Origin: Patescibacteria group bacterium | GTDB lineage: Bacteria; Patescibacteriota; Patescibacteriia; JAGPKW01 | Assembly: GCA_021734125.1 (NCBI GenBank) | Contig: JAIPJN010000001.1 | Coordinates: 26,957 to 90,956, forward strand | Length of the DNA: 64,000 nt | Direction of reading: 5' to 3' | Shown here: positions 1,174 through 61,840 of the stretch, in pieces | How positions within the stretch are numbered: the stretch's first letter is position 1 | Layout: the number at the start of each line of letters is the position of its first letter | The notes under the pieces: generated by a model | The model's database searches: none | What the model saw: the letters and a program-made list of their open reading frames with translations, nothing else | Told to the model about the DNA's origin: nothing | Position numbers and translations under genes: made by a program

Positions 1174-1198
1174 GGCCAACCGTGGTTGGTCACTACAT
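1174..1198. repeat. GC-rich palindromic element, degenerate copy: GGCCAACCGTGGTTGGTCAC then TACAT. It sits between the convergent mfd and trmH-like genes.
   Basis: Imperfect inverted repeat GCCAACC/GGTTGG with the CTACA-like tail read directly from the sequence. It belongs to the same family as 1949, 5553, 17388, 36642 and 61815. Confidence 0.6.
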
Positions 1199-1199
1199 A

Positions 1200-1928
1200 T
1201 TACATATTTGAAAATGCCATTATAATTCCTGCAGTAACTCCAGCATTTAATGATTCTATATTTTTTGATATTGGGATACTAATAATTTCTTCAGAATTTT
1301 TAATTATATCTTCTGACAAACCATTTCCTTCATTCCCTACTGCTAAAATAAAGTTTTTAGGAAATTTAAATTTATTTATATTTTTACCATTCATATCAGC
1401 AGATAATAAATTATTTTTATATAATATTTTTTCATCTTCTATAAAATATATTTTTATTTTTTCTATTGATCCAGCAGAACTTCTTATCGTTTTTTCATTA
1501 TAAATATCACAAGTCCCCTTTCCAAAAATAATTCCATCAAAATTAAATGCAACAGCTGATCTTATTATTGTTCCTATATTTCCTGGATCTTGTATATTAT
1601 CTAAATAAATAAATTTACCTAATTTAATTTTTTCTGAATTTTTTAATATTTCATAATTCATTTTTGAAATACTTATAATTCCTTGAGTATTTTTTGTTTC
1701 TTTTATTTTATTAAAAATATTATTAGAAATTATTTCTAAATTTAAATTACTATTTTTTAATTTAGAGATATTAAATTTTTCATTTACATATATTTCTTTA
1801 ATATTTTTAGAATCATTAATAAATTTTTCACCTTCTAAAATATATTCTTTATTATCATATCTATATTTTTTTGAAGATAATAATTTTTTTATATGTTTTA
1901 TTTTTTTGTTTTCTTTTGAAATAATCAT
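1200..1928 (-). CDS. SpoU/TrmH-family RNA 2'-O-methyltransferase
   Basis: C-terminal SPOUT motifs GNEGNGLS...SLNAGVTAGIIMAF in the 242-aa ORF. Confidence 0.6.
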   Translation of the reverse strand: MIISKENKKIKHIKKLLSSKKYRYDNKEYILEGEKFINDSKNIKEIYVNEKFNISKLKNSNLNLEIISNNIFNKIKETKNTQGIISISKMNYEILKNSEKIKLGKFIYLDNIQDPGNIGTIIRSAVAFNFDGIIFGKGTCDIYNEKTIRSSAGSIEKIKIYFIEDEKILYKNNLLSADMNGKNINKFKFPKNFILAVGNEGNGLSEDIIKNSEEIISIPISKNIESLNAGVTAGIIMAFSNM

Positions 1929-1948
1929 TTTATTTGATTTATATATTA

Positions 1949-1974
1949 GGGTCAGCCATGGCTGACCCCTACAT
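1949..1974. repeat. GC-rich perfect palindrome GGGTCAGCCATGGCTGACCC followed by CTACAT
   Basis: Perfect 20-nt palindrome in the AT-rich spacer between the ppsA stop and the trmH-like start. Confidence 0.85.
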
Positions 1975-1996
1975 TTTATTTTTAATACATTTCAAT

Positions 1997-4465
1997 TTAT
2001 TTCTTTCCAAAAACTTTTTTCTTTTTAGATAACATTAATTTTGTTTTTATTACTGTATCTGGATTTAATGAAATAGAATCTATTTTATTTTTTACTAAAA
2101 ATTCTGCAAAATCTGGAAAATCTGAAGGAGCTTGACCACAAATTCCTATTTTCTTTTTATTCTTTTTAGCAATTTCTATAGCTTGTTTAATTAATGTTTT
2201 AACTGCATCATTTCTTTCATCATATACATGTGCTACTAAAGAAGAATCTCTATCTACTCCTAATGTAAGTTGAGTTAAATCATTAGATCCAATTGAAAAT
2301 CCATCAAATATTTTAGAAAATTCATTCATTAATATTATGTTAGAAGGTATTTCTACCATCATATAAATTTCCAACTTATTTTCACCCCTTTTTAATCCAT
2401 ATTTTTCCATTATTTCTACAACTTTTTTACCCTCTTCTACTGTTCTGCAAAATGGAATCATTACTAATATATTATCGAGTCCCATTTCTTCTCTAGCTTT
2501 TTTAATAGCTTTACATTCTAATCCAAATTCTTTTTCAAATTCAGGGTCATAATATCTAGAAGCCCCTCTCCATCCTATCATAGGATTATGCTCTACTGGT
2601 TCATATTCTGTTCCACCTATTAAATTAGCATATTCATTTGTTTTAAAATCAGAAAATCTTACTATAACTGGTTTTGGATAAAATGCAGCTCCTAATCTAG
2701 CTACACCTTCTGCTAATTTATCTACATAGAAAGATGATTTAGATTTATATCCTTTTGTTATTTCTTCTATTTGTTTTTTTACTTCTTTATCTTTTAGTTT
2801 AGAAAAATTAAGTAATGCTTTTGGATGTGCTTTTATATAAGTATTTATAATAAATTCTTCTCTTGCTAGTCCAACTCCATCATTTGGTATAAAAGATGTT
2901 GAAAAAGCTATTTCAGGATTAGCAATATTTAACATTACTTTTGTTTTTGTATCTTTTATTTTTTTTAAATTCGTTTTTTTGATTGAAAATTTTAATTCAT
3001 CTTTATATACTTTTCCTTTTTCTCCTTCTGCACAAGATACTGTTATTTTTTGGTTATTTTTTATTTTTTCAGTTCCATCTACTGTTCCAACGATACAAGG
3101 TATTCCTAATTCTCTAGAGATTATAGCAGCATGGCAAGTTCTACCTCCTGAATTTGTAACTATTGCTGATGCAATTTTCATAATTGGTTCCCAATCTGGA
3201 TCCGTCATTTCAGTAACTAAAACCTCGCCTTTTTTAAAACTAGTTATTTGACTTACATCTTTTATCATATGAGCTTTTCCTGAACCTATTTTTGATCCAA
3301 CTGAAGCTCCTGAAGCTAATATCTCTCCTTTTTCTTCTAAAATATATTCTTCTAAAACATTTTTATTTTTTTGAGATTGAACAGTTTCTGGTCTAGCTTG
3401 AACTATAAATAATTTTCCTGTTTCACCATCTTTAGCCCATTCCATATCCATTGGTTTTTTATAATGATCTTCTATAATACAAGCCCATTTAGCAAGTTTT
3501 AATACTTCTTTATCAGTAATAGAAAATTCGTCCTGATCTGATTTTGATACTTTTATGTCTTTAGTTTGAGTTTTTGCTCCATCTTCTGAATAAATCATTT
3601 TTATTTCTTTTGATCCAATACTTTTTCCTATTATAGATTTTTTATTTTCTTTTAAGCCTTTTTTCCAAACATAAAATTCATCTGGTGAAACCTTTCCTTG
3701 AACTATATTTTCTCCAAGCCCATAAATTGAGTTTATAATAACAGCATTTTCAAATCCTGATTCTGTATCTATCGAAAACATAACACCTGAAGAAGATAAA
3801 TCAGAACGCACCATTTTCTGAACAGTTATAGATAATCCAACTTTAAAGTCAGAAAATCCCTTTTCATGTCTATAAGATATTGCCCTATTAGTAAATAATG
3901 AAGCAAAACATTTTTTACAAGCTTCTAATAATTCTTCTTCTCCTTTTATATTTAAATATGTTTCTTGTTGACCAGCAAAGGAAGCATCAGGCAAATCTTC
4001 TGCTGTTGCTGATGATCTAACCGCAACGTCTATTTCTTTTGTTTTATATTGTTTACAAAGTTTTCTATAAGAATCACAAATTGATTCTTCTAATTCTTTT
4101 GGAAATTTTAAATTAAGTATTATATTTCTAGCCTTTCTTCCTTTACTCATTAGCTCTCTAATATTGTGAGTATCTATTTTATCTAAAGTACTTTTTATTT
4201 TAGCTTTTGCTCCTGTTTTTTCTAAAAGGTAAAAATAAGAATAAGCAGATATAGCAAATCCCCCTGGAACTTCAACTCCTTTTGGTTTTAATTTTCTATA
4301 CATTTCTCCTAAAGATGCATTTTTTCCTCCAACTAACGGTACATCTTTTATAGAAATATCATCAAACCAAAGAATAAATTCTTTTTCTTTTTTTATTTTT
4401 TTGTCTTTAAAAGAAGCATCCTTTTTTTCTAAGGATTTTTTTTGAACCTTTTTTTTATTTGCCAT
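1997..4465 (-). CDS. ppsA: Phosphoenolpyruvate synthase (pyruvate, water dikinase)
   Basis: 822 aa. Phospho-histidine swivel motif GGRTCHAAIISRELGIPCIVGT. N-terminal ATP-grasp-like and C-terminal PEP-utilising barrel regions are present. Confidence 0.75.
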   Translation of the reverse strand: MANKKKVQKKSLEKKDASFKDKKIKKEKEFILWFDDISIKDVPLVGGKNASLGEMYRKLKPKGVEVPGGFAISAYSYFYLLEKTGAKAKIKSTLDKIDTHNIRELMSKGRKARNIILNLKFPKELEESICDSYRKLCKQYKTKEIDVAVRSSATAEDLPDASFAGQQETYLNIKGEEELLEACKKCFASLFTNRAISYRHEKGFSDFKVGLSITVQKMVRSDLSSSGVMFSIDTESGFENAVIINSIYGLGENIVQGKVSPDEFYVWKKGLKENKKSIIGKSIGSKEIKMIYSEDGAKTQTKDIKVSKSDQDEFSITDKEVLKLAKWACIIEDHYKKPMDMEWAKDGETGKLFIVQARPETVQSQKNKNVLEEYILEEKGEILASGASVGSKIGSGKAHMIKDVSQITSFKKGEVLVTEMTDPDWEPIMKIASAIVTNSGGRTCHAAIISRELGIPCIVGTVDGTEKIKNNQKITVSCAEGEKGKVYKDELKFSIKKTNLKKIKDTKTKVMLNIANPEIAFSTSFIPNDGVGLAREEFIINTYIKAHPKALLNFSKLKDKEVKKQIEEITKGYKSKSSFYVDKLAEGVARLGAAFYPKPVIVRFSDFKTNEYANLIGGTEYEPVEHNPMIGWRGASRYYDPEFEKEFGLECKAIKKAREEMGLDNILVMIPFCRTVEEGKKVVEIMEKYGLKRGENKLEIYMMVEIPSNIILMNEFSKIFDGFSIGSNDLTQLTLGVDRDSSLVAHVYDERNDAVKTLIKQAIEIAKKNKKKIGICGQAPSDFPDFAEFLVKNKIDSISLNPDTVIKTKLMLSKKKKVFGKK

Positions 4466-4514
4466 AAAAAATATTTTACCTTTTTAAAATTATTTTCTTT
4501 ATTATAACATTTTT

Positions 4515-5432
4515 TTATTTTGTTTTTAAATATTTGTTTGCATAGGTAGCTGAAACAGCACCCATAGCTTCTGCAGTTATTACTTGTTTTAATTCACAAA
4601 AACCAGTAGTTATATCCCCTGCTGCAAAAACACCTTTTTTAGAGGTTTCACAATATTTATTTATTTTTATAAAATTATTTTCAAATTCTATATTTAAATT
4701 TTGAAATAAAACTGATTGAGGTATTAATCCAATTTCTATAAAAACTCCAGAAACTTCAATTTCTTCTTTTTTATTTGTAATAATTTTTTCAACCATTTTT
4801 TCTCCTTTTATTTCTTCTACTTCTGTTTCATATAATATTTCTATTTTTTCGTTTTCTTCTACTTTTTCTATAAGATTTTTATTTTCTGTTGATGGAGAAC
4901 ATTTTCTACAAATTAAATAAACTTTTTCTGCAATATTTGATAAATATAATGCAGAATTAAATGCAGAATCGCCACTCCCTAATACAACAACTTTTTTATT
5001 TTTATATAAAAAACCATCACACGTTGTACAATATGTAACTCCTTTTCCTATAAATTCTTTTTCACCTTTTATATTTGCTTTTCTTTTTTCAGTTCCTGTT
5101 GCAATTATTAAACTTTTAGATTTTATATTTTCACCATCTTTTGTCGAAATAAAAAAATTATTATCTATTTCAGATATTCCAATCACTTCATCTTCTTTTA
5201 TTTTACATTCTTTGTATTTTTCTAAATGTTTTACAATTTTGTCTGTAAAATCTATACCACTTACATCTTCTATCCCAGGATAATTATCCATTAAATGTGC
5301 AGTAGTGATCATTCCTCCTTTTGTTTTTCCAATGATCATACTATTTAATTTATATCTAGAAGCATAAATTCCAGCAGTAATTGCAGCTGGGCCAAAACCT
5401 ATAATTGCTAAATCAAAAATTTTTTCTTCCAT
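4515..5432 (-). CDS. trxB: Thioredoxin reductase
   Basis: FAD motif LAIIGFGPAAITAG, redox CxxC as CTTCDG, and a second NAD(P)-binding GSGDSA motif. Confidence 0.8.
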   Translation of the reverse strand: MEEKIFDLAIIGFGPAAITAGIYASRYKLNSMIIGKTKGGMITTAHLMDNYPGIEDVSGIDFTDKIVKHLEKYKECKIKEDEVIGISEIDNNFFISTKDGENIKSKSLIIATGTEKRKANIKGEKEFIGKGVTYCTTCDGFLYKNKKVVVLGSGDSAFNSALYLSNIAEKVYLICRKCSPSTENKNLIEKVEENEKIEILYETEVEEIKGEKMVEKIITNKKEEIEVSGVFIEIGLIPQSVLFQNLNIEFENNFIKINKYCETSKKGVFAAGDITTGFCELKQVITAEAMGAVSATYANKYLKTK

Positions 5433-5469
5433 AATAATTTAAATTTATTTATCAATTATTATATTGATT

Positions 5470-5579
5470 TATTGTATTTTTAATTAAATAATTGTTTTAT
5501 ATAAACACACCACGTCGGGTTCCTACATTTTTAATTAAATAATTATTTTTATTGGTCAGCGATCGCTAACCACTACAAT
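5470..5579. repeat. Tandem pair of palindromic-element units. Each unit is an AT-rich leader (tttttaattaaataatt..) plus a GC-rich core ending in CTACA. The first core is degenerate (CACCACGTCGGGTTCCTACAT). The second is TGGTCAGCGATCGCTAACCA then CTACAAT.
   Basis: Direct repeat of the leader at about 5478-5500 and 5528-5550. Near-perfect palindrome at 5553-5572 containing GCGATCGC. Confidence 0.7.
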
Positions 5580-5619
5580 TACCTTTAAAATGGTTTTTGT
5601 AAAATACAAATATTTTAAA

Positions 5620-5931
5620 TTAAATAATCGTGTTTATAACTTCTAATATTCTTTCTTTTGAGGTTAAACCAATTATTTCTTCTTTTACTTCTCCATCTTT
5701 TATAATTTTAAGACAAGGAATACTCATAATATTAAATTCTGCTCCTAATTCTTGTTCTTGATCTACATTAACCTTAAACACTTTAAAATTAGTAGCTTCT
5801 TCTGATAAATTTTGTAATATAGGCGTCATCATATTGCAAGGAGCACACCAAGGAGCCCAAAAATCAACAACAGAAACACCCTCTTTTACTGATTCTTTAA
5901 AATTTTCTTTTGTAAGTTCTGTAATATTCAT
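5620..5931 (-). CDS. trxA: Thioredoxin
   Basis: 103 aa with the WAPWCAPC active site. Confidence 0.8.
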   Translation of the reverse strand: MNITELTKENFKESVKEGVSVVDFWAPWCAPCNMMTPILQNLSEEATNFKVFKVNVDQEQELGAEFNIMSIPCLKIIKDGEVKEEIIGLTSKERILEVINTII

Positions 5932-6054
5932 ATTTTTATATTTAAAAATTATTTGTCTATCATATCATATATTTTTATATATTAACACATTTGACTTAAT
6001 CATGAGTTAATACTATAATTTTTTATTACACTATAAATAATTTAAAAGTTTTTT

Positions 6055-7432: not shown

Positions 7433-7479
7433 AATTTTTGTTGTTTTATTTTATTTTATTTAAATATTATAGCATTTTC

Positions 7480-7525: not shown

Positions 7526-7601
7526 GGGTGTATAGCTCAGTTGGTTAGAGCGCGACTCTTATAAAGTCGAGGTCCCTGGTTCAAGTCCAGGTACACCCAC
7601 C
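7526..7601 (+). tRNA. tRNA-Ile with anticodon UAU, which decodes AUA
   Basis: Cloverleaf read by hand. Acceptor GGGTGTA/TACACCC; D-arm GCTC-AGTTGGTTA-GAGC; anticodon stem CGACT/AGTCG with loop CTTATAA, giving U33 and anticodon TAT; T-arm CCTGG-TTCAAGT-CCAGG. The body closely resembles the spacer-type tRNA-Ile(GAU). Confidence 0.7.
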
Positions 7602-17264: not shown

Positions 17265-17387
17265 AATATTTATTTATGTATAGTTTGACTATTATACATG
17301 ATTTTAGATAAATTATCAATAATGATATGCAATGTTTATATATTTGAAAAATAATTTTAATAATTAAATAAAAAACATTTTAGTTAG

Positions 17388-17412
17388 GGCCAGCGATCGC
17401 TGGCCCCTACAA
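17388..17412. repeat. GC-rich perfect palindrome GGGCCAGCGATCGCTGGCCC followed by CTACAA. The nth stop codon lies inside the tail.
   Basis: Perfect 20-nt palindrome. On the minus strand it reads TGTAGGGGCCAGCG..., and the TAG in that string is the nth stop (17407-17409). Confidence 0.85.
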
Positions 17413-28520: not shown

Positions 28521-28627
28521 TTTTAGTGAATTAATTTTAAAATACTATATAAAAAATAGTAAACACACTATATCATTTTTATAATAAGTTTACAATATTA
28601 ATCTAATAAATTTTCTTAATAAAAAAA

Positions 28628-28754
28628 GGCCGAGAGATTTTACCCTTAGCTTCGGAACTTGCTTATACTAGGATTACTCATTAATTGAATTAATAAATTA
28701 TCACTAGTATGAGTAAGTTCCGAAAATTATTATTTTTTAAAGGGCCTCTCGGCT
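28628..28754 (+). ncRNA. Candidate structured RNA, or an unusually long bidirectional terminator. It is a 127-nt extended hairpin made of an 8-bp GC clamp, an asymmetric internal loop (14 versus 21 nt), a 21-bp stem, and an apical mini-palindrome TTAATTGAATTAA.
   Basis: GGCCGAGAG...CTCTCGGC for the outer clamp. TTCGGAACTTGCTTATACTAG pairs with CTAGTATGAGTAAGTTCCGAA. The two mismatches are G·U and U·G on the plus strand only. U-rich tracts lie on both sides. Confidence 0.3.
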
Positions 28755-28972
28755 ATTTATTTTTGTTATCAATTATTTCTTATAAGAATTAATTGAAATT
28801 TTCGTTGCTACATCAACTTTTTTCTTACCATTTCTAATGGTTAAACTCATAAATTTTACCCCAGATAAATTTTTTATTTTTATCTTGGAACTTATAAATT
28901 TCTCCTTTTTATTTTTATTATCTATTGTTTTAAATACTTAAAGTAGAAGTATTTGTATAAAACAGTAAGAAT

Positions 28973-29012
28973 GGAACTTATATGAAAGAATATTTCATAT
29001 AAGATCTATTCC
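28973..29012. terminator. Hairpin downstream of the minus-strand gene 29153..30475
   Basis: Stem CTTATATGAAA, loop GAATA, stem TTTCATATAAG (11 bp), extended by GGAA/TTCC. Confidence 0.4.
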
Positions 29013-29152
29013 TTGATAACCTTTTATTTTTTATGAACCTTTACTTTATTACAATTCTATTATATCACTTATTTTACTTATATGCAATATCTTAGTTATA
29101 TTTATTTAATTTTTTTTGCTAATTTTAGGGTTTAAATAATTGAACAATATTT

Positions 29153-30537: not shown

Positions 30538-32733
30538 TTATTTTTCTCTTCTAGGTATTGGCTTTTTTTCAAAACTTTTTCTTTCGTTTTCTTTATTTTC
30601 CTTTAATTGTTTCACAGATAAACCTAATTTTCCATTAGTCTTATCTTTTTCTATAACTTTTACTTTTACTTCATCCCCTACTTTAAAATAATCTGAAACA
30701 TTATTTACTCTTTTATGATCTATTTCAGAAATATGTAATAAACCATCTTTACTTGAACTTAACTCTATAAAAGCTCCAAAATCTAATATTTTAACAACTT
30801 TACCATTTACTATATCTCCAACTTCAAATTCTCTTATTAAATTTTCTATTGTTTTCTGTGCCAATTCTACAGATTTACTATCTTTTGCAAATAGAAATGT
30901 GGTTCCATCATCTTCTATATTAATATCAGAACCTGTTTTTTCTATAATTTCTTTTATAGTTTTACCCCCAGGACCAATAACTAGACCTATTTTTTCAGGA
31001 TCTATATTCATTTTTTTAATTCTAGGAGCATGTTCAGATAATTCTTTTCTAGGTTCTTCTATAATATTTGGAAATACCTCTTTTAATATTTGTAATCTTG
31101 CTTTTTTGGCTCTTTCTAATACTTCTTTTATAATTTTTGTATCTATACCTTCTGTTTTTGTATCCATTTGCATAGCTGTTATTCCAACTTCACTTCCCCC
31201 AACTTTAAAGTCCATACCACCTTCTCCATCTTCCATGTCTTGTATATCTGTTAATATTTTATAATTACCATTTTTATCATTTGCCATTCCAATTGCTATA
31301 CCCGCAACTGGTCTTTTAATTTTAATACCAGCATCCATTAAAGCTAAAGATGATCCACATATAGAAGCCATAGAACTTGAACCATTTGAACCCATAACTT
31401 CACTTACTACAAGTATTGTATACGGAAAATTTTCCTTTTCTGGAATAACTCCTTCTAATGCTTTTTCAGCTAATCTTCCATGTCCAATTCCTCTATTATT
31501 AGTTCCTCTTATAGGAGCTGCTTCATGATAAGCAAATGGAGCATCGCTATAATAATGTATGTATCTTTTTGTAGAGTCTTCTTCCATTGTATCAATAGTT
31601 TGTTCGTCAGATGGAGAACCTAATGTAACTACTGATAATACTTGAGTTTCTCCTCTTTGAAATATAGCAGAACCATGAGTTCTAGGAAGTAAACCAACTT
31701 CCCCATCTAATTTTCTTATTTGATCTATTTTTCTTCCATCAACTCTTTTTTCTTCTTTTAATATTGCTTCTGTAACTTTTTCTTCAATAAATTCATCAAA
31801 AAAAGAATTTATTATCTTTTTCGAATAATTTTCTTTATCTTCTATTTCTTCTTCTATTTTTGTTACTAGAAATGAAATAACTTCATTTTTTAGAGTTTTT
31901 AAAATTTCTTTTCTTTCTCTTTTTGTTCCAATAGGTATATTAAAAAGATATTTTTCGTGATTTTTATTTATATAATCTTTAGCAATATTTACTAAATCTT
32001 CATCTACTTCTTCTGTATTATATAATTCTTCAATATTAATTTTTTCTTTTCCTATTTCTTTTTGTATAGAATTTAAAAATTCTACAACAGGAGACATTTC
32101 TTTCATTGCTAACTCAAAAGCTTTTTCTGCTATATCTTCTGTTATTTCTTTTGAACCTGATTCTATCATAGTTATTTTTTCACCTGTTCCTGAAACAGTT
32201 AATTCTAAATCTAAATTTTCTCTAACTTCATAACTAGGATTTATTATATAATCACCATTTTTATACCCTATTCTAATACCTGCTAATGGACCATTCCATG
32301 GAATATCTGAAATACTTAAAGCACAAGAAGCTCCTATTATACCTAAAATATCTGGAGAATTTTCTTCATCTATAGATAAACAAGTTATAACTATTTGGAT
32401 ATCATTTCTTATTTTTTGATCAAATAAAGGCCTTATCCCTCTATCTATAAATCTTCCAGATAATATCCCTTCATCTGAAGGTCTTCCATCTCTTTTTATA
32501 AATCTTGATCCTTTTATTTTCCCAGAAGCATACATTTTTTCTTGAAAATTTACCATAAGAGGCATAAAATCAACACCTTCTCTTTGTTCTTTATTTATAA
32601 CTGCAGTCGCTAAAATAACTGTTTCTCCATATTGTACTAAACAGCTAGAATTAGTTTGATGAGCTATTTTATTTGGAGTTATTTTAAGTTTTTTACCGGC
32701 AAACTCCATCTCAAAACTTTTAATATCGTTCAT
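30538..32733 (-). CDS. pnp: Polynucleotide phosphorylase
   Basis: Two RNase PH domains, a KH domain (GLVIGPGGKTIKEI) and an S1 domain. Sits in the classical rpsO-pnp arrangement. Confidence 0.9.
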   Translation of the reverse strand: MNDIKSFEMEFAGKKLKITPNKIAHQTNSSCLVQYGETVILATAVINKEQREGVDFMPLMVNFQEKMYASGKIKGSRFIKRDGRPSDEGILSGRFIDRGIRPLFDQKIRNDIQIVITCLSIDEENSPDILGIIGASCALSISDIPWNGPLAGIRIGYKNGDYIINPSYEVRENLDLELTVSGTGEKITMIESGSKEITEDIAEKAFELAMKEMSPVVEFLNSIQKEIGKEKINIEELYNTEEVDEDLVNIAKDYINKNHEKYLFNIPIGTKRERKEILKTLKNEVISFLVTKIEEEIEDKENYSKKIINSFFDEFIEEKVTEAILKEEKRVDGRKIDQIRKLDGEVGLLPRTHGSAIFQRGETQVLSVVTLGSPSDEQTIDTMEEDSTKRYIHYYSDAPFAYHEAAPIRGTNNRGIGHGRLAEKALEGVIPEKENFPYTILVVSEVMGSNGSSSMASICGSSLALMDAGIKIKRPVAGIAIGMANDKNGNYKILTDIQDMEDGEGGMDFKVGGSEVGITAMQMDTKTEGIDTKIIKEVLERAKKARLQILKEVFPNIIEEPRKELSEHAPRIKKMNIDPEKIGLVIGPGGKTIKEIIEKTGSDINIEDDGTTFLFAKDSKSVELAQKTIENLIREFEVGDIVNGKVVKILDFGAFIELSSSKDGLLHISEIDHKRVNNVSDYFKVGDEVKVKVIEKDKTNGKLGLSVKQLKENKENERKSFEKKPIPRREK

Positions 32734-36320: not shown

Positions 36321-36583
36321 TTTTTATTTAATTTTAAATATTACTATTTAAGTTTACCAAAAAGTCCTCTAATTAACAATCTAAATAGCTATTGACATAT
36401 TATAATAAACATGATATTATCTAGTATACCTTAAAAAAATAATGCTTATAAATCTGTGGGCACGACAAGCGGGAGATTATTTTAGTAGGATAAAATGGAT
36501 AACTCTATTTTATATCTGCCTGTGATCTTTTTGCTCACAGTTTTATGTGCATTATTTTTTTTATTTAAAAAAATATATTTTTT

Positions 36584-36667
36584 ATTTTTTTATTTTTATA
36601 AAGGACCAACGGTTGTTGGTTTTTATTTTTATTTTTATAAAGGGCCAGCGATCGCTGGCCCCTACCT
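36584..36667. repeat. Tandem pair of palindromic-element units. Unit 1 has the degenerate core GGACCAACGGTTGTTGGT. Unit 2 has the perfect core GGGCCAGCGATCGCTGGCCC then CTACCT. The two units share the leader tttttatttttataaagg.
   Basis: Direct duplication visible in the sequence. The spurious ORF 36495..36749 translates both copies as FYFYKGPTVVGF and FYFYKGPAIAGP. Confidence 0.8.
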
Positions 36668-36670
36668 TTT

Positions 36671-38479
36671 TTATTCATTTTCATTAGCTTCTTGCTCACA
36701 AATTTCTTCAGATTTTCCCCTTAAACATACTTGTTGCCAAGGTACATAGTGACTTTTAAAAGTTACTTCTTTTTTTTCTCCATCTTTATATTCAACTATA
36801 TAATCAAATTCAGCATCTGCTCCGTTATGTGCTAATTCAGTACATTTAACTTCTCCTTCTTCTAAATCACAAGTATCAGTCCATTTTGTTGGAGGCGGTG
36901 ATACTATATTTTTTATTATAGGTTCTGTTATTGTAATTTTCCTATCATCATATGTGCCCCAAATTGTATATTTTAAATCATAATCATCTATTTCAGTCAT
37001 TATTAAAATATAATTTGGAGTATCATTTAAAAATCTCATATCAGGTTTAGGATAATATATAGTTGCATCCGTTCCTGCGGGTTCATAAAAACTTACTCTA
37101 TATGAATGATTTCTTCTTTCTATTATGGGAAGCCCCGCAGAAAGAGCCACCCTAAATGTTGTTGTTCCGACTTGACATAATCCTCCACCATATTCTTTTA
37201 TTGTTTCATTTCCTTTTATAACTAATTCTGGTAAATATCCTTTTTCTGAACTTATTACTCCTAACGTATTAATGAGAGAAAATTCTTCCCCTGGTTTTAC
37301 TAGTGTTCCATTTACATAAGATGATCCTAATTCTATATTATGAATTCTATTTCTAGATGATCCATAAAAATTTGATTCTCCTTCTCCTAATTTATCTATT
37401 AGTCCATATTTTACTACTTCACTATTTGTAGCTTCTGGAATTATTTCTGTTATTATTAAATCAATTTCATTTTTTAAATCTAAAATTTTATTTTCAATAA
37501 TTTCAAAAGATGCTTCTTTATCTAAAGAATAACCATTTAAAATAGGTTTAAAACTTATTACTTTATCGTTTTCTATAATTAATTCTCCTTCTTCTACATT
37601 TTTATCATTTTCTTTTGCTATTCTATCTAAAATTTCAAACATTTTTACTTTATCAATTTTTATTATAACTTTTAAAAATTCTTCTTTTTCAAAAATATAA
37701 TCAAATTTAATTAAATCTAATAAATCTTCTTTATTTAATAAATACTCTGCTTCTTTATATTTTAATTTAATAGGATTATTATTTAATATTGAAGTTGCAT
37801 TATTAAAATAATTTTCTAAATCTTCTTTTTTTATTTTTGGATTTTTTATTTCTTTGTTTAAATTTATCTTTAAATTATAAAAATTATTTTCATTAAATTT
37901 TGATTTTAATTTTTCTTTTACTTCTCCCCATACAAAAATTCTTCCATTTTTATCTTCCGTTATACTATAATTTGAATCTTCTATTACTATTCTTGAATTT
38001 TCTATTTTTTCTTCATATGGTGAAAAAATAAATTTTAATGTATCTATAAAATTATCTTTTATTTCATAATCTAAATTATATTCTTTATTTTTAAATACAT
38101 TATTAAAAAAAAGATTTAGTGTATTTATTATTTTTAAATTTTTATTTTTTAAATTATTTATAATTTCTTCTTCATTTTTAATTAGAATAATATCTTTTAT
38201 TTTAATATCTTCTTTAAAATCATCATCTTTTGATTCAAATATTATACTAGAATTTTTTATATTTTTTATTTCATTTTCAATTATAAAAACTGACTCATCT
38301 ATTTTTCTAAAAGATAAATTTTTATCTAAAAAAGTAGTTTTTGGTGGAGTATATATTAAAAATATTTTATTAATCAAAAATAATAATGTAAAAATAAAAA
38401 ATAATACTATAAAAATTTTTAATATTCTTTTATTTATTTTTTTAATATTCTTTTTATTTTTTATTTTTCTATTAAACAT
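36671..38479 (-). CDS. VanW-family protein with an N-terminal TM anchor and a Cys-rich C-terminal extension
   Basis: VanW core GGGLCQVGTTTFRVALSAGLPIIERRNHSYRVSFYEPAGTDATIYYP. Confidence 0.6.
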   Translation of the reverse strand: MFNRKIKNKKNIKKINKRILKIFIVLFFIFTLLFLINKIFLIYTPPKTTFLDKNLSFRKIDESVFIIENEIKNIKNSSIIFESKDDDFKEDIKIKDIILIKNEEEIINNLKNKNLKIINTLNLFFNNVFKNKEYNLDYEIKDNFIDTLKFIFSPYEEKIENSRIVIEDSNYSITEDKNGRIFVWGEVKEKLKSKFNENNFYNLKINLNKEIKNPKIKKEDLENYFNNATSILNNNPIKLKYKEAEYLLNKEDLLDLIKFDYIFEKEEFLKVIIKIDKVKMFEILDRIAKENDKNVEEGELIIENDKVISFKPILNGYSLDKEASFEIIENKILDLKNEIDLIITEIIPEATNSEVVKYGLIDKLGEGESNFYGSSRNRIHNIELGSSYVNGTLVKPGEEFSLINTLGVISSEKGYLPELVIKGNETIKEYGGGLCQVGTTTFRVALSAGLPIIERRNHSYRVSFYEPAGTDATIYYPKPDMRFLNDTPNYILIMTEIDDYDLKYTIWGTYDDRKITITEPIIKNIVSPPPTKWTDTCDLEEGEVKCTELAHNGADAEFDYIVEYKDGEKKEVTFKSHYVPWQQVCLRGKSEEICEQEANENE

Positions 38480-47323: not shown

Positions 47324-48709
47324 TTATAAATAAAGTTTTTCTCTAATAAGCTCTACATCTTTTTGTATTTTATTGTTTTCAAGCATTTGTGTTCTTATTT
47401 TTTGATAAGAATGCATAGCTGTAGTATGATCTCTTCCACCAAGTTCTGCTCCAATATTAGGGAAAGAGCAGTCTAATTCTTCCCTTAATAAATACATAGA
47501 TATTTGTCTTGGAACAACTAATTCTCTTTTTCTAGATTTCCCTTTTAATTCTTCATCTGTAATATTATAAAAACTTGAAACTGATTTTATAATGTCTCTT
47601 ATACCAAAATTGGCATGCTTTTTTCTACTTTCTTTTAAAGCAAATATTGTTGTTTTTATATTATCTATTGTTGGTTCTATCATTCTAAGTTCGTATTGTG
47701 CTATTATTTTATTTAAAATTCCTTCAAGCTCTCTAACACTTTTTTGAATCATTGTAGCTATAAATTTTATAACTTCTGGTTTAAATTTATAACCTTTTTG
47801 ATTTAATTTTGATTCAACTATAGCAACTCTAGTTTCTAAATCTGGAATTGATATATCTGCTATCATTCCAGATTCTAATCTGGAAGTTAATCTTTCTTGA
47901 AAAGCAGATAAAGCTTGTGGTGGTCTATCTGATGTAATGACTATTTGTTTATTTTTTTGGTAATATTCATTGAAGGTATTAAAAAATTCTTCTTGAGTTC
48001 TATCTTTACCAGCCATAAACTGTATATCATCAATCAATAATATGTCATAAGATCTATATTTATCTCTAAATCCTTTCATTTTACCTGCTTGAATTGCTTC
48101 TATATAATCATTTACAAACTTTTCACAAGTTATGTAAAGGACTTTTTCTCCTTTAAATCTTTTATTAATTTCGTTCCCTATTGCTTGAGATAAATGAGTT
48201 TTACCTATACCTACATCTCCATATAAAAATAAAGGATTATATTTTTCTCCAGGATAAGTGGCAACACATTTTGCAGCGGCATATGCTAATTCATTTGTTT
48301 TCCCAACAATAAAATTCTCAAATGTGTATTTTTCATTTAAAGCAAATTCCCCCATTGGTAGAGAATCTTTATATCTGGTTTGATTAATATTGATTTCTGT
48401 TTTTTCTTTTTCTAATGTTTCTTCTTTTTCTTTTGGCTTTTCTTCATTTTTATGTATATTTAGATCTACTTCATACACAATTTTTTTAATTTTGCCCTCA
48501 GTAACTTCTTGTAAAGAATCTAATATTTCTTTATGGTACTTCTTTTTAAGCCAAGCCTTAGCAAAAGCGTGAGGAACGCCAAGAGTGACTTGTTCATCAT
48601 TTTCTATGTCTTTTATAAATGTATTTTCAAACCAAGTAGCAAAATTAGCTTTAGAAAGAGATAATTCTAACCTCGCTAAGGATGCTTCCCATATTTGTTC
48701 TTTATCCAT
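47324..48709 (-). CDS. dnaA: Chromosomal replication initiator DnaA
   Basis: AAA+ Walker A LFLYGDVGIGKTHL and domain IV VVPRQISMYLLREEL...GGRDHTTAMH. Confidence 0.9.
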   Translation of the reverse strand: MDKEQIWEASLARLELSLSKANFATWFENTFIKDIENDEQVTLGVPHAFAKAWLKKKYHKEILDSLQEVTEGKIKKIVYEVDLNIHKNEEKPKEKEETLEKEKTEININQTRYKDSLPMGEFALNEKYTFENFIVGKTNELAYAAAKCVATYPGEKYNPLFLYGDVGIGKTHLSQAIGNEINKRFKGEKVLYITCEKFVNDYIEAIQAGKMKGFRDKYRSYDILLIDDIQFMAGKDRTQEEFFNTFNEYYQKNKQIVITSDRPPQALSAFQERLTSRLESGMIADISIPDLETRVAIVESKLNQKGYKFKPEVIKFIATMIQKSVRELEGILNKIIAQYELRMIEPTIDNIKTTIFALKESRKKHANFGIRDIIKSVSSFYNITDEELKGKSRKRELVVPRQISMYLLREELDCSFPNIGAELGGRDHTTAMHSYQKIRTQMLENNKIQKDVELIREKLYL

Positions 48710-48773: not shown

Positions 48774-48812
48774 TGTGGAAAACTTTTTTGCCTGTGTATA
48801 AACTGTGTATAA
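48774..48812. promoter_or_regulatory. Cluster of three DnaA-box-like 9-mers in the divergent dnaA/rpmF intergenic region; candidate dnaA promoter or oriC segment
   Basis: TGTGGAAAA (48774-48782), TGTGTATAA (48793-48801) and TGTGTATAA (48804-48812). Each is one mismatch from TGTGGATAA. Confidence 0.4.
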
Positions 48813-48915: not shown

Positions 48916-49077
48916 ATGTCAGTTCCAGCAAAAAAAGCTTCAAGAACTCAAACTAGAGCTAGAAGAAAAACTAATATGAAAATAAAATTTACTAAAGATA
49001 ATATAGAAAATTGCCCTAAATGTAATAAAGTAAAATTACAACACAGGGCTTGTTCTTATTGTGGTTATTACAAATAA
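48916..49077 (+). CDS. rpmF: 50S ribosomal protein L32 (53 aa; absent from the supplied ORF track)
   Basis: Translated by hand: MSVPAKKASRTQTRARRKTNMKIKFTKDNIENCPKCNKVKLQHRACSYCGYYK. It has the CxxC...CxxC zinc ribbon and the basic N-terminus typical of bL32. Confidence 0.7.
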   Translation: MSVPAKKASRTQTRARRKTNMKIKFTKDNIENCPKCNKVKLQHRACSYCGYYK

Positions 49078-49083
49078 AATTTT

Positions 49084-50650: not shown

Positions 50651-50768
50651 GTTCTGGCGATGACCTACTTTTCAACCTTGAAAAAGGCGTATCATCGGTG
50701 CTAAAAGGCTTAACTTCTGTGTTCGGTATGGGAACAGGTGTTACACTTTTGCTATTAATCACCAGAAC
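50651..50768 (-). rRNA. rrf: 5S rRNA
   Basis: The reverse complement contains CCCATACCGAACACAGAAGTTAAGC. Confidence 0.85.
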
Positions 50769-50864
50769 AATAATTTACTCTATCTTATCTAGTATAAGTA
50801 AAATAAATTAAAGAAAAGAATAAAGTTTCTAATATTCTAATTACATTTTAATTACATTATAAAT

Positions 50865-53845
<2,981 letters not shown>

Positions 53846-57805: not shown

Positions 57806-57806
57806 A

Positions 57807-58382
57807 ATGTTTGACAAAAATATTCAAAATAAAATATCGGAAATTAGAAAATTTGGAAAAGAAAACAATATACCAAATGTTACTGAAAATGTTGGTCTTT
57901 TTTTAAATTTTATAATAAAAAATAATAAAAATATAAAAAATGTTTTAGAAATAGGTTCATGTAATGGTTTATCTTCTATTTATATGATTTCTGAATTATC
58001 TAAAAGAAATGGTAAATTAAATACTATAGAATATGTTCCCCACTCAATTTTAAGGCTTAAAAAAAATATTAATTCTTTAAACTTTGATAAGTATACAAAT
58101 ATTATTTCTTCTGATGCTATTTTATATTTAAATAAGTTAAATAAAAAAATAATAAAACCTAAATATGATTTAATATTTATTGATGCTATGAAAAAACAAT
58201 ATTTAGATTATTATCTAAATATAATAAATCTTATAAAAAAAGGTTCTGTTATTATATTTGACGATGTTATTAAATATAAATATAAAATGCAAAATTTATA
58301 TGATTATTTAGAAAAAGAAAATATAAAATATACTATAATAAATATAGATTTTGATGATGGGATTATGATTTTAAAAAAATAA
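57807..58382 (+). CDS. Class I SAM-dependent O-methyltransferase (family 3, caffeoyl-CoA OMT-like)
   Basis: VLEIGSCNGLSSIYM and DLIFIDAMKKQYLDYY. The start is moved to the ATG at 57807, just after the recQ stop. Confidence 0.6.
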   Translation: MFDKNIQNKISEIRKFGKENNIPNVTENVGLFLNFIIKNNKNIKNVLEIGSCNGLSSIYMISELSKRNGKLNTIEYVPHSILRLKKNINSLNFDKYTNIISSDAILYLNKLNKKIIKPKYDLIFIDAMKKQYLDYYLNIINLIKKGSVIIFDDVIKYKYKMQNLYDYLEKENIKYTIINIDFDDGIMILKK

Positions 58383-58396
58383 GGTATTTAAATACC

Positions 58397-58687
58397 CTAT
58401 TTTTTATTTTTCATATTTTTAATATATTTTTCAGCTTCTTCCTTTAAGGTCATTAAACTTTTTAATTCTCCCCAAGTTATTTCTTCTTTTTTATTATATA
58501 CTTTATCTTTTAAGTTTTCAGCAATTTTATTTATTTCTGATATAAGGTCCTCTATTTTTTTATCTTTCTTTTTGTATTCATCTTTATACCAAAAATAGCC
58601 ATTAAAGTTTAAAGCTGAATTTATTTTTCCTTCTATTTCTTCATGCAATATTTTTACATCATCTGATAACAGATCTAATATGTTCAT
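58397..58687 (-). CDS. Hypothetical 96-aa protein
   Basis: ORF only. Coupled to the leuS stop. Confidence 0.3.
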   Translation of the reverse strand: MNILDLLSDDVKILHEEIEGKINSALNFNGYFWYKDEYKKKDKKIEDLISEINKIAENLKDKVYNKKEEITWGELKSLMTLKEEAEKYIKNMKNKK

Positions 58688-61650
58688 TATATTATAATAT
58701 TTAGTAATTTATTTTCTATAAAGATAGTTTTTCTAATTTCTTTATTTTCAATATATTTTTTTAATTTAGCAGAAGAAATTGCCCTTTCTAATACCTCTTT
58801 TTGAGTTGAATCAATATTCATTTCTATAATTTCTCTTGGCTTTCCATTTATAGATATAACAAATTTTATAATATCATCTTTTATTAGTTTTTTATCATAA
58901 GTAGGCCAATTTACATCTCTTGTAATAATGTTTTTGTTGCCTATTTGACTCCATAATTCTTCTGTTATATGCGGAGCAAATGGGTTTAAAATTATTAAAA
59001 ATTTTTCAAATAAATCTTTTGATATTTCTTTTTCTTTTTTCATGTTATTTGAAAGAATCATCAAACTAGAAATTGCTGTATTAAATGAAAAATTATCTAT
59101 ATCTTCACCAACTTTTTTTATTGTTTTATTTGCTAACTTTTCTATATTTTTATGTTCTACATCATGTTCTACAACTTTATCTTTTAGCTGATAAACTCTT
59201 TCTAAAAATTTTCTCATTCCCAAAACTCCACCCTGACTCCATGATGCACTTTGTGAAAATGGCCCCATAAACATTTCAAATAATCTTAGAGAATCTGCTC
59301 CAAATTCTTCTACTATATTATTTGGATCTATACCATTCCCTTTCCTTTTAGAAATTTTTGTTCCATCTTCTGCCATTACTAAACCAACGTGTAATAATTT
59401 CTGAAAAGGTTCTTTAGTAGAAACCACCCCAAGGTCATACAAAAATTTATGCCAAAATCTGGCATATATTAAATGCCTTGTTGCATGTTCAGCTCCCCCA
59501 ACATATAAATCAACATTCATCCAATATTTTTCTTTTTCTGGATCAACCATTAACTCTTCATTTTTTGGATCTATATATCTCAAATAGTACCAACAAGAAC
59601 CTGCCCATTGTGGCATTGTATTGGTTTCTCTTTTTGCCTCTTCTCCGCATATCGGACATTTAACATTAACCCATTCTTTTATATTTACAAGAGGAGATTC
59701 TCCGGTTCCTGATGGTTCATAATTTTCTACATTTGGTAATTTAAGCGGTAAATCTTTTTTATTAAGTGATACTATTCCACATTTTGGACAGTGTATTATT
59801 GGAATAGGCTCCCCCCAATATCTTTGTCTAGAAAAAACCCAATCTTTTAATTTATAATTAACTTTTTTTCTACCAAATCCTTTATTTTTTGCAAATTCCA
59901 TCATTTTTTCTATAGCATCTTTAGTTTTAAGACCTGAAAACTCACCTGAATTAATAGTAATTCCATGTTCTGTAATAACTTTTCCATTTAAAAATTCTAA
60001 ATCCCTATAATCCTTTTCATACCCTCTTGTTTTTACTTGTTTTTCTTTAAATGCTTTTACAAATCTTTTAGAAATAATAAAATTATCATTAAAGTCTTCT
60101 TCTTTTGTTTCTATAAAATTATTATTAGAGTCTATATCTTTTATACTTATTTCTACTTCTATGTCAGAAAATACACATTTTATTTTTTTATCAGATTCTT
60201 CTTGTATCTTAAAATTTAATTTTTCAATTAATAAATTTTTTATTTGTTTTAAATTATTTTTTTCTACAAATAAATCAATATCCTCATGTTTTCTATATAC
60301 AACTGAAGAATAAATACTACAAGCTAATCCTCCAATTAGCCACATATTTATACTTTCTTTATCTAAAACTTCTTTTATTTTATATAATATATTGAATATA
60401 TTATTAGTTATATTATAATCATCAATATTATATACAACACTTTGTTTTATAGGTAAATTATATTTCTTAGCAAATTCAAAATCTCTAAAATCATGAGCAG
60501 GAACAGCCATTACAGAGCCTGTTCCGTATGAATTTAATACATAATCAGCGATAAAAACTTCTATTTTTTCATTATTAAAAGGATTTATAGCATATATACC
60601 CTCTAGTTTTACTCCATTTTTATCTTTATTTAGATCTGTTCTTTCTAATTCACTTTTATTTTTAATTTTTTTTATATATTCTTCTACTTCTTCTATATTT
60701 TCTATTTTCTCTTTTATTTCTGAAATTATTTTATTTTCTGGAGAAATAACAATATATGTACAACCAAAAATAGTATCTAATCTTGTTGTAAATACTGATA
60801 TTTTATTTAAATTTTTATTGTCTTTTACTATACTAAAATCTATCTCAGACCCCTCGCTTCTTCCTATCCAATTCTTTTGCATTTCAATTATCATATTCTC
60901 CCAGTCTAGAAGTTTTAAATCTTCTAACATTCTGTCTGCATATTTTGTAATTTTTAAAACCCATTGTCTCATAGGTTTTAATTCTGTTTCAGAACCACAT
61001 CTTTCACATTTTCCATTTTCTAAATCTTCATTTGCTAGACCAGTTTTACAAGAGGGACACCAAATTATAGGTTCAAAACTTTCAAATGCAAGTCTATTTG
61101 AATCAATATATTTTTTATCTTCGTTAGATAAAGAATAATAATCTTCTGTTTGAAATTTTTCTTTAATTAATTCTTTAATATCTCGAGCTTTATCTAATTT
61201 TTCATCGTAATAAGAATTATATAGTTTAATAAAAATCCACTGAGTCCATTTGTAATAATCAGGGTTTATTGTCATTATTTCCTTATCCCAATCATAACTT
61301 AATCCTATATTTTTTAATTGATTTTTAAATTTTTCAATATTTTCTAAAGTTGCTTTTTCTGGATGAATTTTATTTTTTATAGCATAATTTTCTGCCGGAA
61401 GTCCAAAAGCATCCCAACCCATAGGATGTAAAACATTATAACCTTGTAAATTTTTATATCTTGAATAAATATCTGTTGCTGCATATCCTTTAGGATGACC
61501 TATATGGAGTCCAGATCCAGAAGGATAAGGAAACATATCTAAAATATAAAATTTTTCCTTATTTTTTTCTTCTTTTGTTTTATAGACATTATTATCTTCC
61601 CAAATTTTTTGCCACTTTTTTTCAATTTCTTTATGTTTATATTCACTCAT
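58687..61650 (-). CDS. leuS: Leucyl-tRNA synthetase carrying an extra nucleotidyltransferase-like insertion
   Basis: HIGH motif PYPSGSGLHIGHP, editing-domain TTRLDT, and KMSKS as KISKRKGN. About 120-130 extra residues (approximately aa 431-560, nt 59970-60360) contain the motif MWLIGGLACSIYSSVVYRKHEDIDLFV. Confidence 0.9.
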   Translation of the reverse strand: MSEYKHKEIEKKWQKIWEDNNVYKTKEEKNKEKFYILDMFPYPSGSGLHIGHPKGYAATDIYSRYKNLQGYNVLHPMGWDAFGLPAENYAIKNKIHPEKATLENIEKFKNQLKNIGLSYDWDKEIMTINPDYYKWTQWIFIKLYNSYYDEKLDKARDIKELIKEKFQTEDYYSLSNEDKKYIDSNRLAFESFEPIIWCPSCKTGLANEDLENGKCERCGSETELKPMRQWVLKITKYADRMLEDLKLLDWENMIIEMQKNWIGRSEGSEIDFSIVKDNKNLNKISVFTTRLDTIFGCTYIVISPENKIISEIKEKIENIEEVEEYIKKIKNKSELERTDLNKDKNGVKLEGIYAINPFNNEKIEVFIADYVLNSYGTGSVMAVPAHDFRDFEFAKKYNLPIKQSVVYNIDDYNITNNIFNILYKIKEVLDKESINMWLIGGLACSIYSSVVYRKHEDIDLFVEKNNLKQIKNLLIEKLNFKIQEESDKKIKCVFSDIEVEISIKDIDSNNNFIETKEEDFNDNFIISKRFVKAFKEKQVKTRGYEKDYRDLEFLNGKVITEHGITINSGEFSGLKTKDAIEKMMEFAKNKGFGRKKVNYKLKDWVFSRQRYWGEPIPIIHCPKCGIVSLNKKDLPLKLPNVENYEPSGTGESPLVNIKEWVNVKCPICGEEAKRETNTMPQWAGSCWYYLRYIDPKNEELMVDPEKEKYWMNVDLYVGGAEHATRHLIYARFWHKFLYDLGVVSTKEPFQKLLHVGLVMAEDGTKISKRKGNGIDPNNIVEEFGADSLRLFEMFMGPFSQSASWSQGGVLGMRKFLERVYQLKDKVVEHDVEHKNIEKLANKTIKKVGEDIDNFSFNTAISSLMILSNNMKKEKEISKDLFEKFLIILNPFAPHITEELWSQIGNKNIITRDVNWPTYDKKLIKDDIIKFVISINGKPREIIEMNIDSTQKEVLERAISSAKLKKYIENKEIRKTIFIENKLLNIII

Positions 61651-61750
61651 TTTTTTATGTTACTTTTTTCTAAGAATACCATCAAATATAGACTTTTTCA
61701 AATTTTTGTATTTAATTAAAAAATATTTTATAAATAAAAAGAAACATGAT

Positions 61751-61840
61751 AAATAAAAAAGAACGCGCCGCGGCGCGTTCCCACAAAAATTTATTTTCTA
61801 TTTGTAAAATAAAAGGGCCAACGATCGTTGGCCCCTACAT
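61751..61840. repeat. Tandem pair of palindromic-element units: GAACGCGCCGCGGCGCGTTC-CCACA and GGGCCAACGATCGTTGGCCC-CTACAT. Each is followed by the same tttattttctatttgtaaaa flank.
   Basis: Two perfect 20-nt palindromes 44 nt apart with a duplicated 3' flank. On the minus strand each is followed by a U-tract, so both are terminator-like for the upstream oxidoreductase operon. Confidence 0.85.

Follow-up and report, generated by a model that had tools for sequence, protein, structure and literature searches.

We identified a family of short GC-rich hairpins in a 64-kb stretch of DNA from a Patescibacteria group bacterium (GCA_021734125.1, contig JAIPJN010000001.1, positions 26,957 to 90,956; hereafter the window). 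The family consists of GTAG-tagged repetitive extragenic palindromic (REP) elements, a known kind of element in a host group for which we found no earlier report. The window has a GC content of 23%. Seven strong copies lie in it, spread over six intergenic loci, and there are also two decayed copies. These elements have a common anatomy and a single polarity relative to genes, lie close to gene 3' ends, conserve their stems through compensatory changes, and differ between relatives in presence or absence and in tandem arrangement. We consider it likely that the family is specific to its lineage, was seeded by a REP-associated tyrosine transposase (RAYT), and is now mostly inherited vertically as hairpins in the 3' untranslated regions (UTRs) of genes in this low-GC genome.

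Number and anatomy of the hairpins

An exhaustive palindrome scan returned five perfect 20-nt palindromes with a GC fraction of at least 0.7 (1949-1968, 17387-17406, 36642-36661, 61761-61780 and 61815-61834). The family also includes two imperfect copies, at 1173-1192 (two broken pairs) and 5553-5572 (one mismatch), and two decayed ones, at approximately 5504-5522, where CTACA is kept, and at 36603-36622, where the tag is gone (Table 1). The original prediction, which had described these hairpins from the letters of the sequence, placed most of them correctly, although its copies at 17388 and 61751 really start at 17387 and 61761. Its description of the copies as perfect palindromes holds for five of them and not for the two imperfect and two decayed ones, and the statement that they are always perfectly self-complementary is wrong, since the core CAACCGTGGTTG is not self-complementary.

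The family itself is real. A covariance model built from 12 copies and run over the window recovered the seven strong copies, then only the two decayed units, and nothing within genes; each strong copy scored 18-21 bits higher in the minus orientation. In a scan for GC-rich hairpins followed by CTAC, six true copies were found on the plus strand and none on the minus strand, with one chance match within the 23S rRNA. The predicted single orientation was thus borne out by both methods, and neither copies inside genes nor copies in random orientation were seen in the window. The octamer GCGATCGC occurs three times in the window against 0.00 expected from 100 shuffles, each time as the centre of a copy, so the three exact 8-mers were rightly held to be beyond chance. 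At gathering thresholds, Rfam matched only rRNA and tRNA in the window, and none of its families matched the hairpins.

Table 1. Hairpin copies and associated direct repeats in the window (positions count from the first letter of the window)
Feature	Position	Strand	Covariance model score	Context
Imperfect copy, TGTAG-TGACCAACCACGGTTGGCCT	1173..1197	-	34 bits	Between convergent mfd (+) and trmH-like (-) genes; 6 nt past trmH-like stop (1200-1202); orthologue in L121
Perfect copy, TGTAG-GGGTCAGCCATGGCTGACCC	1949..1973	-	41.7 bits	28 nt past ppsA stop, upstream of trmH-like gene; orthologue in L121
Decayed second unit of trxA-trxB doublet, TGTAG-GAACCCGACGTGGTGTGTT	5503..5527	-	10 bits, E 2.2	Weak hairpin
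One-mismatch copy, TGTAG-TGGTTAGCGATCGCTGACCA	5553..5577	-	36.3 bits	47 nt past trxA stop (5620-5622)
Three direct 23-nt repeats	5476..5634			5476-5498, 5527-5549, 5612-5634
Perfect copy, TGTAG-GGGCCAGCGATCGCTGGCCC	17387..17411	-	43.2 bits	Same place in L134 and L135
Decayed untagged unit, AAACCAACAACCGTTGGTCC	36603..36622	-	about 10-12 bits	
Perfect copy, GGTAG-GGGCCAGCGATCGCTGGCCC	36642..36666	-	41.9 bits	9 nt past VanW-like stop (36671-36673)
GTGG-tag variant, TGTGG-GAACGCGCCGCGGCGCGTTC	61761..61785	-	32.3 bits	Orthologue of the single L131/L132 element
Perfect copy, TGTAG-GGGCCAACGATCGTTGGCCC	61815..61839	-	45.8 bits	10 nt past porB stop (61845-61847)
54-nt head-to-tail duplication	61780..61863			30-nt repeats 61780-61809 / 61834-61863

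On the plus strand, a unit reads as a 20-nt GC-rich palindrome followed by C(T/C)AC-A, and on the minus strand as (T)GTAG followed by the hairpin. Read on this strand, which is that of the upstream genes, the good copies begin with (A/T)TGTAG and continue into the palindrome, as in TGTAG-GGGCCAGCGATCGCTGGCCC and TGTAG-GGGTCAGCCATGGCTGACCC. The stems comprise 8-10 bp, are GC-rich and enclose a 4-nt, usually self-complementary centre. GTAG is present in seven of the nine window copies (six strong ones and the decayed 5503-5527) and in all eight copies from other contigs; the two exceptions in the window are GTGG at 61761 and the absence of a tag at the decayed 36603 unit. The CCCCTACA tail that the original prediction had singled out is the reverse complement of this tag, which defines the GTAG-tagged REP superfamily (PMC3733652). 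Of 15 copies from all sources, 11 have a stem that ends in a CT dinucleotide, and segments of 57 nt with intact copies have a predicted RNA minimum free energy of -15 to -20 kcal/mol. No 10-mer is conserved across the family; the arms vary in sequence, and the changes are compensatory.

The copies stand either alone or in head-to-tail tandems. There are three doublets, all head-to-tail tandems of 39-54 nt, and no inverted pairs were found in the window or in relatives. Between trxA and trxB, the region 5476..5634 is a local head-to-tail reiteration of the hairpin plus its flank, in which the repeat 5612-5634 overlaps the end of trxA, including its stop codon. The decayed 36603 unit belongs to a 39-nt tandem (36581-36619 / 36620-36658), of which it is the second unit. 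Beyond porB, the duplication at 61780..61863 copies the last porB codons with the stop, the tag and a hairpin, and is absent from a 92%-identical relative.

Two further ideas about the elements were rejected. A long target-site duplication per insertion is not seen: the singletons at 1174 and 17387 lack flanking direct repeats, the only pair near 1949 falls inside the flanking genes, 108 nt apart, and the porB locus aligns against L131 as a simple 54-nt tandem duplication. The AT-rich flank was rejected as part of a mobile unit because flanks differ from locus to locus.

Covariation of the stems

Covariation was measured on an alignment of 12 sequences. Paired cells amounted to 96.7%, nine of the ten symmetric position-pairs had changed on both sides, and none of 500 shuffles scored as high; when the partner column was slid by 1-3 positions as a control, pairing fell to 17-46%. 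The compensatory change proposed from the sequence alone is therefore well founded, and it also extends to orthologous loci. When the ppsA, trmH, porB and nth loci were pooled, there were 12 double-sided against two single-sided changes, and orthologous cores had diverged by 20-40% compared with roughly 8-13% in their flanks. In addition, the central 4 nt are self-complementary in ten of the 12 aligned copies.

Orthologous loci in related genomes

For comparison we used relatives with 87-92% nucleotide identity to the window, namely L120 (GCA_964431815.1), L121 (GCA_009930055.1), L131 and L135 (both from JGI 3300001335, contig ML8_10000261), L132 (SRR1179181) and L134 (GCA_021735565.1). A more distant relative, L122, whose ppsA product has 74% amino-acid identity, was also included.

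Between nth and uvrA, an element lies at the same place in the window, L134 and L135, and in all three nth uses the TAG of the tag as its stop codon (17407-17409 in the window). The core in L134 is identical to that of the window, and the core in L135, GGGCAAGCCATAGCTTGCCC, departs from it by a single C-G to A-T double change and also at the centre. Between ppsA and trmH, GGGTCAGCCATGGCTGACCC of the window corresponds to GGACCAACGATCGTTGGTCC in L121, with four double changes and no single one; the L121 copy carries GTAG on both sides. The imperfect copy between trmH and mfd has been kept in both the window and L121. At the porB-leuS locus, L131 and L132 have a single element, GGTAG-GGGCGCACATTGTGCGCCC-TTTTATTT, whose orthologue in the window is the 61761 copy, again with four double changes, and to this the window adds the 54-nt tandem duplication bearing the main-type hairpin at 61815. 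The trxA-trxB spacer of L120 measures 67 nt and is free of elements, whereas that of the window measures 187 nt with two units and the three 23-nt repeats of the trxA end. The family has no member past ppsA in L122, where an ordinary terminator is found.

Related genomes had been named as a place where the prediction could fail. The orthologous copies do covary structurally, and the trxA-trxB site is empty in L120. The constant sites and the paired changes indicate that the elements, variable in number as they are, have long resided at several loci and are constrained to pair.

Two side observations concern the sequence next to these elements. The L120 contig ends at ...AAAAATGTA (L120 3965-3980), at the TGTAG tag just before the hairpin downstream of ppsA, and this suggests that short-read assemblies of these genomes are interrupted at the repeats. 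In L121, a 14-nt direct repeat (2874-2910; AAATTATATTAAAT twice) starts within the trmH stop codon, before the element downstream of trmH, and is another local reiteration adjoining a hairpin.

Position relative to genes and transcription

All window copies are in one orientation, past the stops of minus-strand genes. The flanking genes encode a SpoU/TrmH-like protein, phosphoenolpyruvate (PEP) synthase, thioredoxin, endonuclease III, a VanW-like protein and the beta subunit of pyruvate:ferredoxin oxidoreductase (PFOR), as the original prediction had named them. Counted from a curated gene list of the window, elements are present in 5 of 16 tandem minus-minus intergenic regions and in one of three convergent ones, and in none of the six divergent or five plus-plus regions. 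The distances from stop codon to stem are 0 (overlap, at nth), 6, 9, 10, 28 and 47 nt. The position after a minus-strand stop thus holds throughout the window but is not absolute for the family, since one copy in a relative lies in a divergent spacer (L129, see below).

A U-tract follows the stem directly on the gene strand at 61815 and 61761 and weakly at 36642, and is delayed at 1174; TTTTATTTT comes next after the 61815 hairpin, and the terminator-like TTTTTTATTT after the 61761 hairpin. The L131 element also has an adjacent U-tract. No U-tract follows the stem at 1949, 5553 and 17387, nor in the copy in the metagenome contig L127. Gene ends without an element have unique terminators of the A-tract/hairpin/T-tract type that lack GTAG (uvrA, rpsT, rpsO, HU, the T2SSE ATPase and the rnc/5S pair). 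These ordinary terminators elsewhere, together with the patchy U-tracts, set the hairpin family apart as a class from normal terminators. The suggestion that the copies act as structured intrinsic terminators fits only about half of them. A simple terminator scan of the window flagged the 1949 copy alone, on the wrong strand, and was uninformative.

Downstream of the nth copy lies a good promoter match, TTGATA-17-TATAAT (17319-17291), facing uvrA. The window also encodes polynucleotide phosphorylase (PNPase; 30538-32733).

The direction of replication was considered as another source of polarity. The window includes dnaA (47324-48709, -) and the divergent rpmF (48917-49078, +), and ahead of dnaA there are three 9-mers resembling DnaA boxes within 40 nt (TTTTCCACA once and TTATACACA twice, 48774-48812), which makes the dnaA-rpmF region a candidate oriC on sequence grounds. 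GC skew across the window tracks the gene strand and does not switch at dnaA, so that the origin was not confirmed. If the origin were at dnaA, the porB copies would be on one replichore and the other five loci on the other, with the porB copies still in gene sense, which would be suggestive, and only that, of a polarity tied to transcription rather than to replication.

Wider distribution

A metagenome scan with a CGATCG-centred pattern returned five short contigs, two of them from AT-rich relatives. These two (L127 and L129) carry the same element, with 28-34 nt identical, at unrelated loci. The L127 copy lies 12 nt past a stop codon and is followed by a separate hairpin with a T-run. The L129 copy is located between the divergent genes tsaD and efp, a spacer that has no element in L132. 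A scan of viral sequences gave no match to the family pattern.

We also scanned a genome collection with the pattern GGGYCARCNNNNGYTGRCCCCTAC. Among the matches listed, most were from cyanobacteria, with Chloroflexota REP families in addition. Crocosphaera, Cyanothece and Oscillatoria carry GTAG-GGGTCAACGGCCGTTGACCC-CTAC, with at least approximately 100 occurrences on both strands among the matches listed, and Phototrophicaceae (Chloroflexota) have among them the stem GGGTCAGCC/GGCTGACCC, which equals the arms of the 1949 copy. The cyanobacterial and Chloroflexota matches show that GTAG with GGG(Y)CA(R)C stems is a REP design that recurs across phyla. They are probably the same as GTAG families already published from cyanobacteria.

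The listed matches also include large families of REP type with GTAG on both sides (L001-L119, for example L028 3732-3755 and 5417-5440). GTAGGGGTCAACGGCCGTTGACCCCTAC was seen in Crocosphaera, Cyanothece and Oscillatoria, and a GGGTCAGCCAAGGCTGACCC family, its arms again those of the 1949 copy, in Phototrophicaceae. In metagenome-assembled genomes (MAGs) of Omnitrophota and Planctomycetia, the pattern GTAGGGGCCAACGGCTGTTGGCCC lies inside a RAYT-like open reading frame (ORF) (L098 3872-4441, -; L004 1436-1777, -). This ORF matches the NCBIfam REP-associated tyrosine transposase in two stretches (E 7e-18, which does not reach the family cut-off) and contains both HUH and Y..NP motifs; the hairpin codes for ...VGANGCWP.... 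In these MAGs, the transposase gene itself appears to contain a hairpin of REP type.

Comparison with known repeat systems

In GTAG-tagged REPs, an unpaired GTAG, sometimes GTGG, stands at one end of a 5-13 bp stem, stems occur as complementary variants, the tag often supplies the TAG stop codon, and most elements are found no more than 20 bp from the 3' end of an ORF, in the spacers of unidirectional or convergent gene pairs (PMC3733652). Clusters of them are reiterated along with flanking DNA (PMC3733652; Di Nocera, De Gregorio & Rocco 2013). The window family shares the one-sided unpaired GTAG or GTGG, the GC-rich stem (6-10 bp), the complementary stem substitutions, the extragenic position mostly less than 20 nt past ORF 3' ends in unidirectional or convergent gene pairs, a TAG usable as a stop, clusters reiterated with their flank, and the CT adjoining the stem. 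It thus combines four of the features that characterize a GTAG-tagged REP, namely a short palindromic unit (20-40 bp, with a stem of 5-13 bp), an unpaired tag, an extragenic 3' position and complementary stem subfamilies. REPs of the superfamily are also dispersed in many copies, and their cognate RAYT gene, which some strains may have lost, is flanked by the repeats (a REPtron). It differs in its 4-nt and usually palindromic centre, most published loops having 2-3 nt without complementarity; in lacking HH and TT dimers; in its host, a reduced 23% GC genome of the Patescibacteria or candidate phyla radiation (CPR); and in the absence of a RAYT gene from the window and the fetched loci (approximately 213 kb).

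A REP of Escherichia coli is reported in a 2026 preprint to act both as a partial terminator and as a stabilizer of upstream mRNA (bioRxiv 10.64898/2026.03.23.713779). Like E. coli REPs and bacterial interspersed mosaic elements (BIMEs), for example REP325, the window elements are GC-rich hairpins just past the stops of tandem or convergent gene pairs, their location varies between relatives, and a dual role as partial terminator and mRNA stabilizer is plausible. Unlike the imperfect, bulged and alternating elements of E. coli, they are perfect or nearly perfect and have one orientation. REPINs are two inverted REPs that move as a unit (Bertels & Rainey 2011, PMC3116915). The family resembles REPIN-RAYT systems in being made of short hairpin repeats that persist and are vertically inherited within a lineage, but no inverted REP pair occurs in the window or in relatives. 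Because there are only head-to-tail tandems and no inverted pairs, these are not BIMEs or REPINs, and of the REP/BIME-like behaviour originally proposed only the REP part stands.

Origin and present role

A group of perfect-palindrome REPs has RAYT partners from Stenotrophomonas and Marinomonas (Corneloup et al. 2021, PMC8266576), and cleavage by RAYT needs GTAG and cuts at the CT beside the stem (PMC8266576). Since the GTAG tag, the perfect stem and the CT junction of the window family match these requirements, we infer, by analogy with characterized REPs, that a RAYT-type HUH tyrosine transposase probably seeded the elements as single-stranded DNA hairpins. At present, most copies would be inherited vertically and transcribed in the 3' UTR of the upstream gene as a 5'-GUAG-hairpin. 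There, copies with a U-tract beyond the stem would probably work as context-dependent or partial terminators, and the hairpins would probably also, or instead, hold up 3'-5' exonucleases, of which PNPase is one that the window encodes. The fast symmetric changes of the stems are best accounted for by selection on pairing, assisted by correction templated within the palindrome or by conversion among copies; in E. coli, the correction of quasipalindromes is an established process.

Several observations weigh against this account. No RAYT/Y1 transposase was found by Pfam among 49 window ORFs or by NCBIfam among the five otherwise unassigned ones, and tblastn with E. coli RayT and a RAYT-like ORF returned nothing below E = 2.7 in approximately 213 kb made up of the window and loci L120-L136. 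Only seven strong copies were seen, at six loci in 64 kb, plus copies at further loci in related contigs, and head-to-tail pairing, the only kind seen, is the arrangement called under-represented in the REP literature. A U-tract directly adjoins the stem in just three or four of the nine window copies. Nor can the fixed polarity be told apart cleanly from the direction of replication. Finally, a palindromic centre is not required by an RNA hairpin, and so a process or constraint at the level of DNA is indicated.

An alternative is that these are purely selfish miniature elements, mobilized by RAYT, without host function and tolerated only in the few non-essential nucleotides past the stops of a compact genome. 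The combination of GTAG, perfect palindrome and CT junction (PMC8266576) would suit such elements, as would the presence/absence polymorphism at trxA-trxB, the identical copies at unrelated loci elsewhere and the termination of the L120 contig exactly at an element. We regard this as possible but unlikely, since four loci keep their position across relatives with compensatory changes, which implies long residence and selection on pairing, and since the copies seem to have become part of gene expression, judging from their strict sense polarity and from the nth stop that the tag supplies; a transposase was found neither in the window nor in the fetched loci.

We are doubtful of a second possibility, that the hairpins never depended on a RAYT and are vertically inherited, the GUAG-hairpin serving as an RNA 3'-end signal for about one in four of the sampled gene ends in an ultra-small CPR genome and its perfect symmetry, 4-nt centre included, being kept by palindrome-templated correction through template switching. 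If it were true, the stems would evolve two to four times faster than their flanks and yet stay paired.

We give equally little credence to the view that the copies are merely intrinsic (Rho-independent) terminators, with their likeness arising from local duplication or convergent use of the few stable GC-rich stems that a 23% GC genome allows, and GTAG being incidental. Canonical terminators are likewise stem-loops past genes, all window copies lie past gene 3' ends in sense orientation, T-runs directly follow the stems at 61761, 61815 and in L131, and L122 has an ordinary terminator at the equivalent place past ppsA. However, sequence and GTAG are common to several loci, and many copies lack a U-tract, with no T-run by the stem after ppsA, trxA and nth. 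Other window genes use unique terminators without GTAG, and the tag is kept in seven of nine copies in the window and in all eight from contigs of relatives and others. The same tag and stem sequences recur at unrelated loci and in different organisms, the L127 element precedes a separate hairpin with its own T-run, and the L129 element lies in a divergent promoter region.

It is highly improbable that the family is a signal in double-stranded DNA, such as a binding, methylation or restriction site (CGATCG, CCATGG or CCGCGG centre, GATC), a gyrase or cruciform site, or a pair of uptake sequences. CPR bacteria rely on DNA uptake, which would favour the last of these, and the self-complementary central 4 nt of ten of the 12 aligned copies, unneeded for an RNA loop, would suit a symmetric DNA site. 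What is conserved, though, is complementarity and not sequence, and a symmetric site needs neither a one-sided tag nor a strict orientation. Seven copies in 64 kb, all intergenic, are also unlike an uptake sequence. Two of these variants were rejected outright: a DNA uptake sequence because the arms vary and no 10-mer is conserved, and a restriction or methylation site because the central hexamers differ among copies. A relation to the cyanobacterial highly iterated palindrome HIP1 (GCGATCGC), brought to mind by the three octamers against none expected and by the mainly cyanobacterial genome matches listed for the family pattern, is effectively refuted, as the only three octamers in the window are all centres of REP copies and none is free-standing, other centres are CCATGG, CCGTGG and CCGCGG, and the cyanobacterial matches are themselves GTAG-flanked palindromes of REP type with a CGGCCG centre.

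Most catalogued REPs come from Proteobacteria, with a few other phyla represented. Full-text literature searches found no paper tying them to Patescibacteria, and a 2025 paper on a survey tool does not mention such a link. The window family leaves the current understanding of REPs unchanged but extends the range of GTAG-tagged REPs to the CPR and to a reduced 23% GC genome, where selfish DNA is expected to be scarce and intergenic space minimal. In the orthologous comparisons, the evolution of REP stems in place through paired substitutions can be followed with unusual clarity, and clusters are seen to grow by tandem reiteration in which the end of the adjacent gene is copied too. Annotators of CPR MAGs should take note of repeats that break assemblies and supply stop codons.

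Other features of the window

The ppsA (PEP synthase), PFOR-beta and endonuclease III genes have their closest named relatives in MAGs labelled 'Patescibacteria group bacterium'. Bacterial 23S and 5S rRNA and three tRNAs are also encoded. Of the tRNAs, tRNA-Ile with anticodon UAU (7526-7601) adjoins tRNA-Ala(UGC); it represents an uncommon bacterial route to reading AUA that is plausible at 23% GC.

The spacer at 28521-29152 has 632 nt without genes, unusually long for a compact genome, and gave no credible Rfam match, relaxed thresholds included. An isolated GC-rich island at 36453-36477 (minus strand ATCTCCCGCTTGTCGTGCCCACAGAT), approximately 130 nt upstream of ruvB, adjoins a small hairpin, CTGTGA...TCACAG, and is not a member of the GTAG family. 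The 23S and 5S rRNA genes (50652-53844) have no 16S gene upstream, with a Wzy-like gene 279 nt beyond, so the rRNA operon appears to be unlinked; their transcription would be head-on to replication if oriC were at dnaA. Finally, leuS (58687-61650, -) encodes a leucyl-tRNA synthetase of 987 amino acids, compared with 843 in the 92%-identical L131. The additional approximately 144 amino acids (59974-60454; ...WLIGGLACSIY...HEDIDLFV...) are internal to the synthetase and resemble a motif of the nucleotidyltransferase type.

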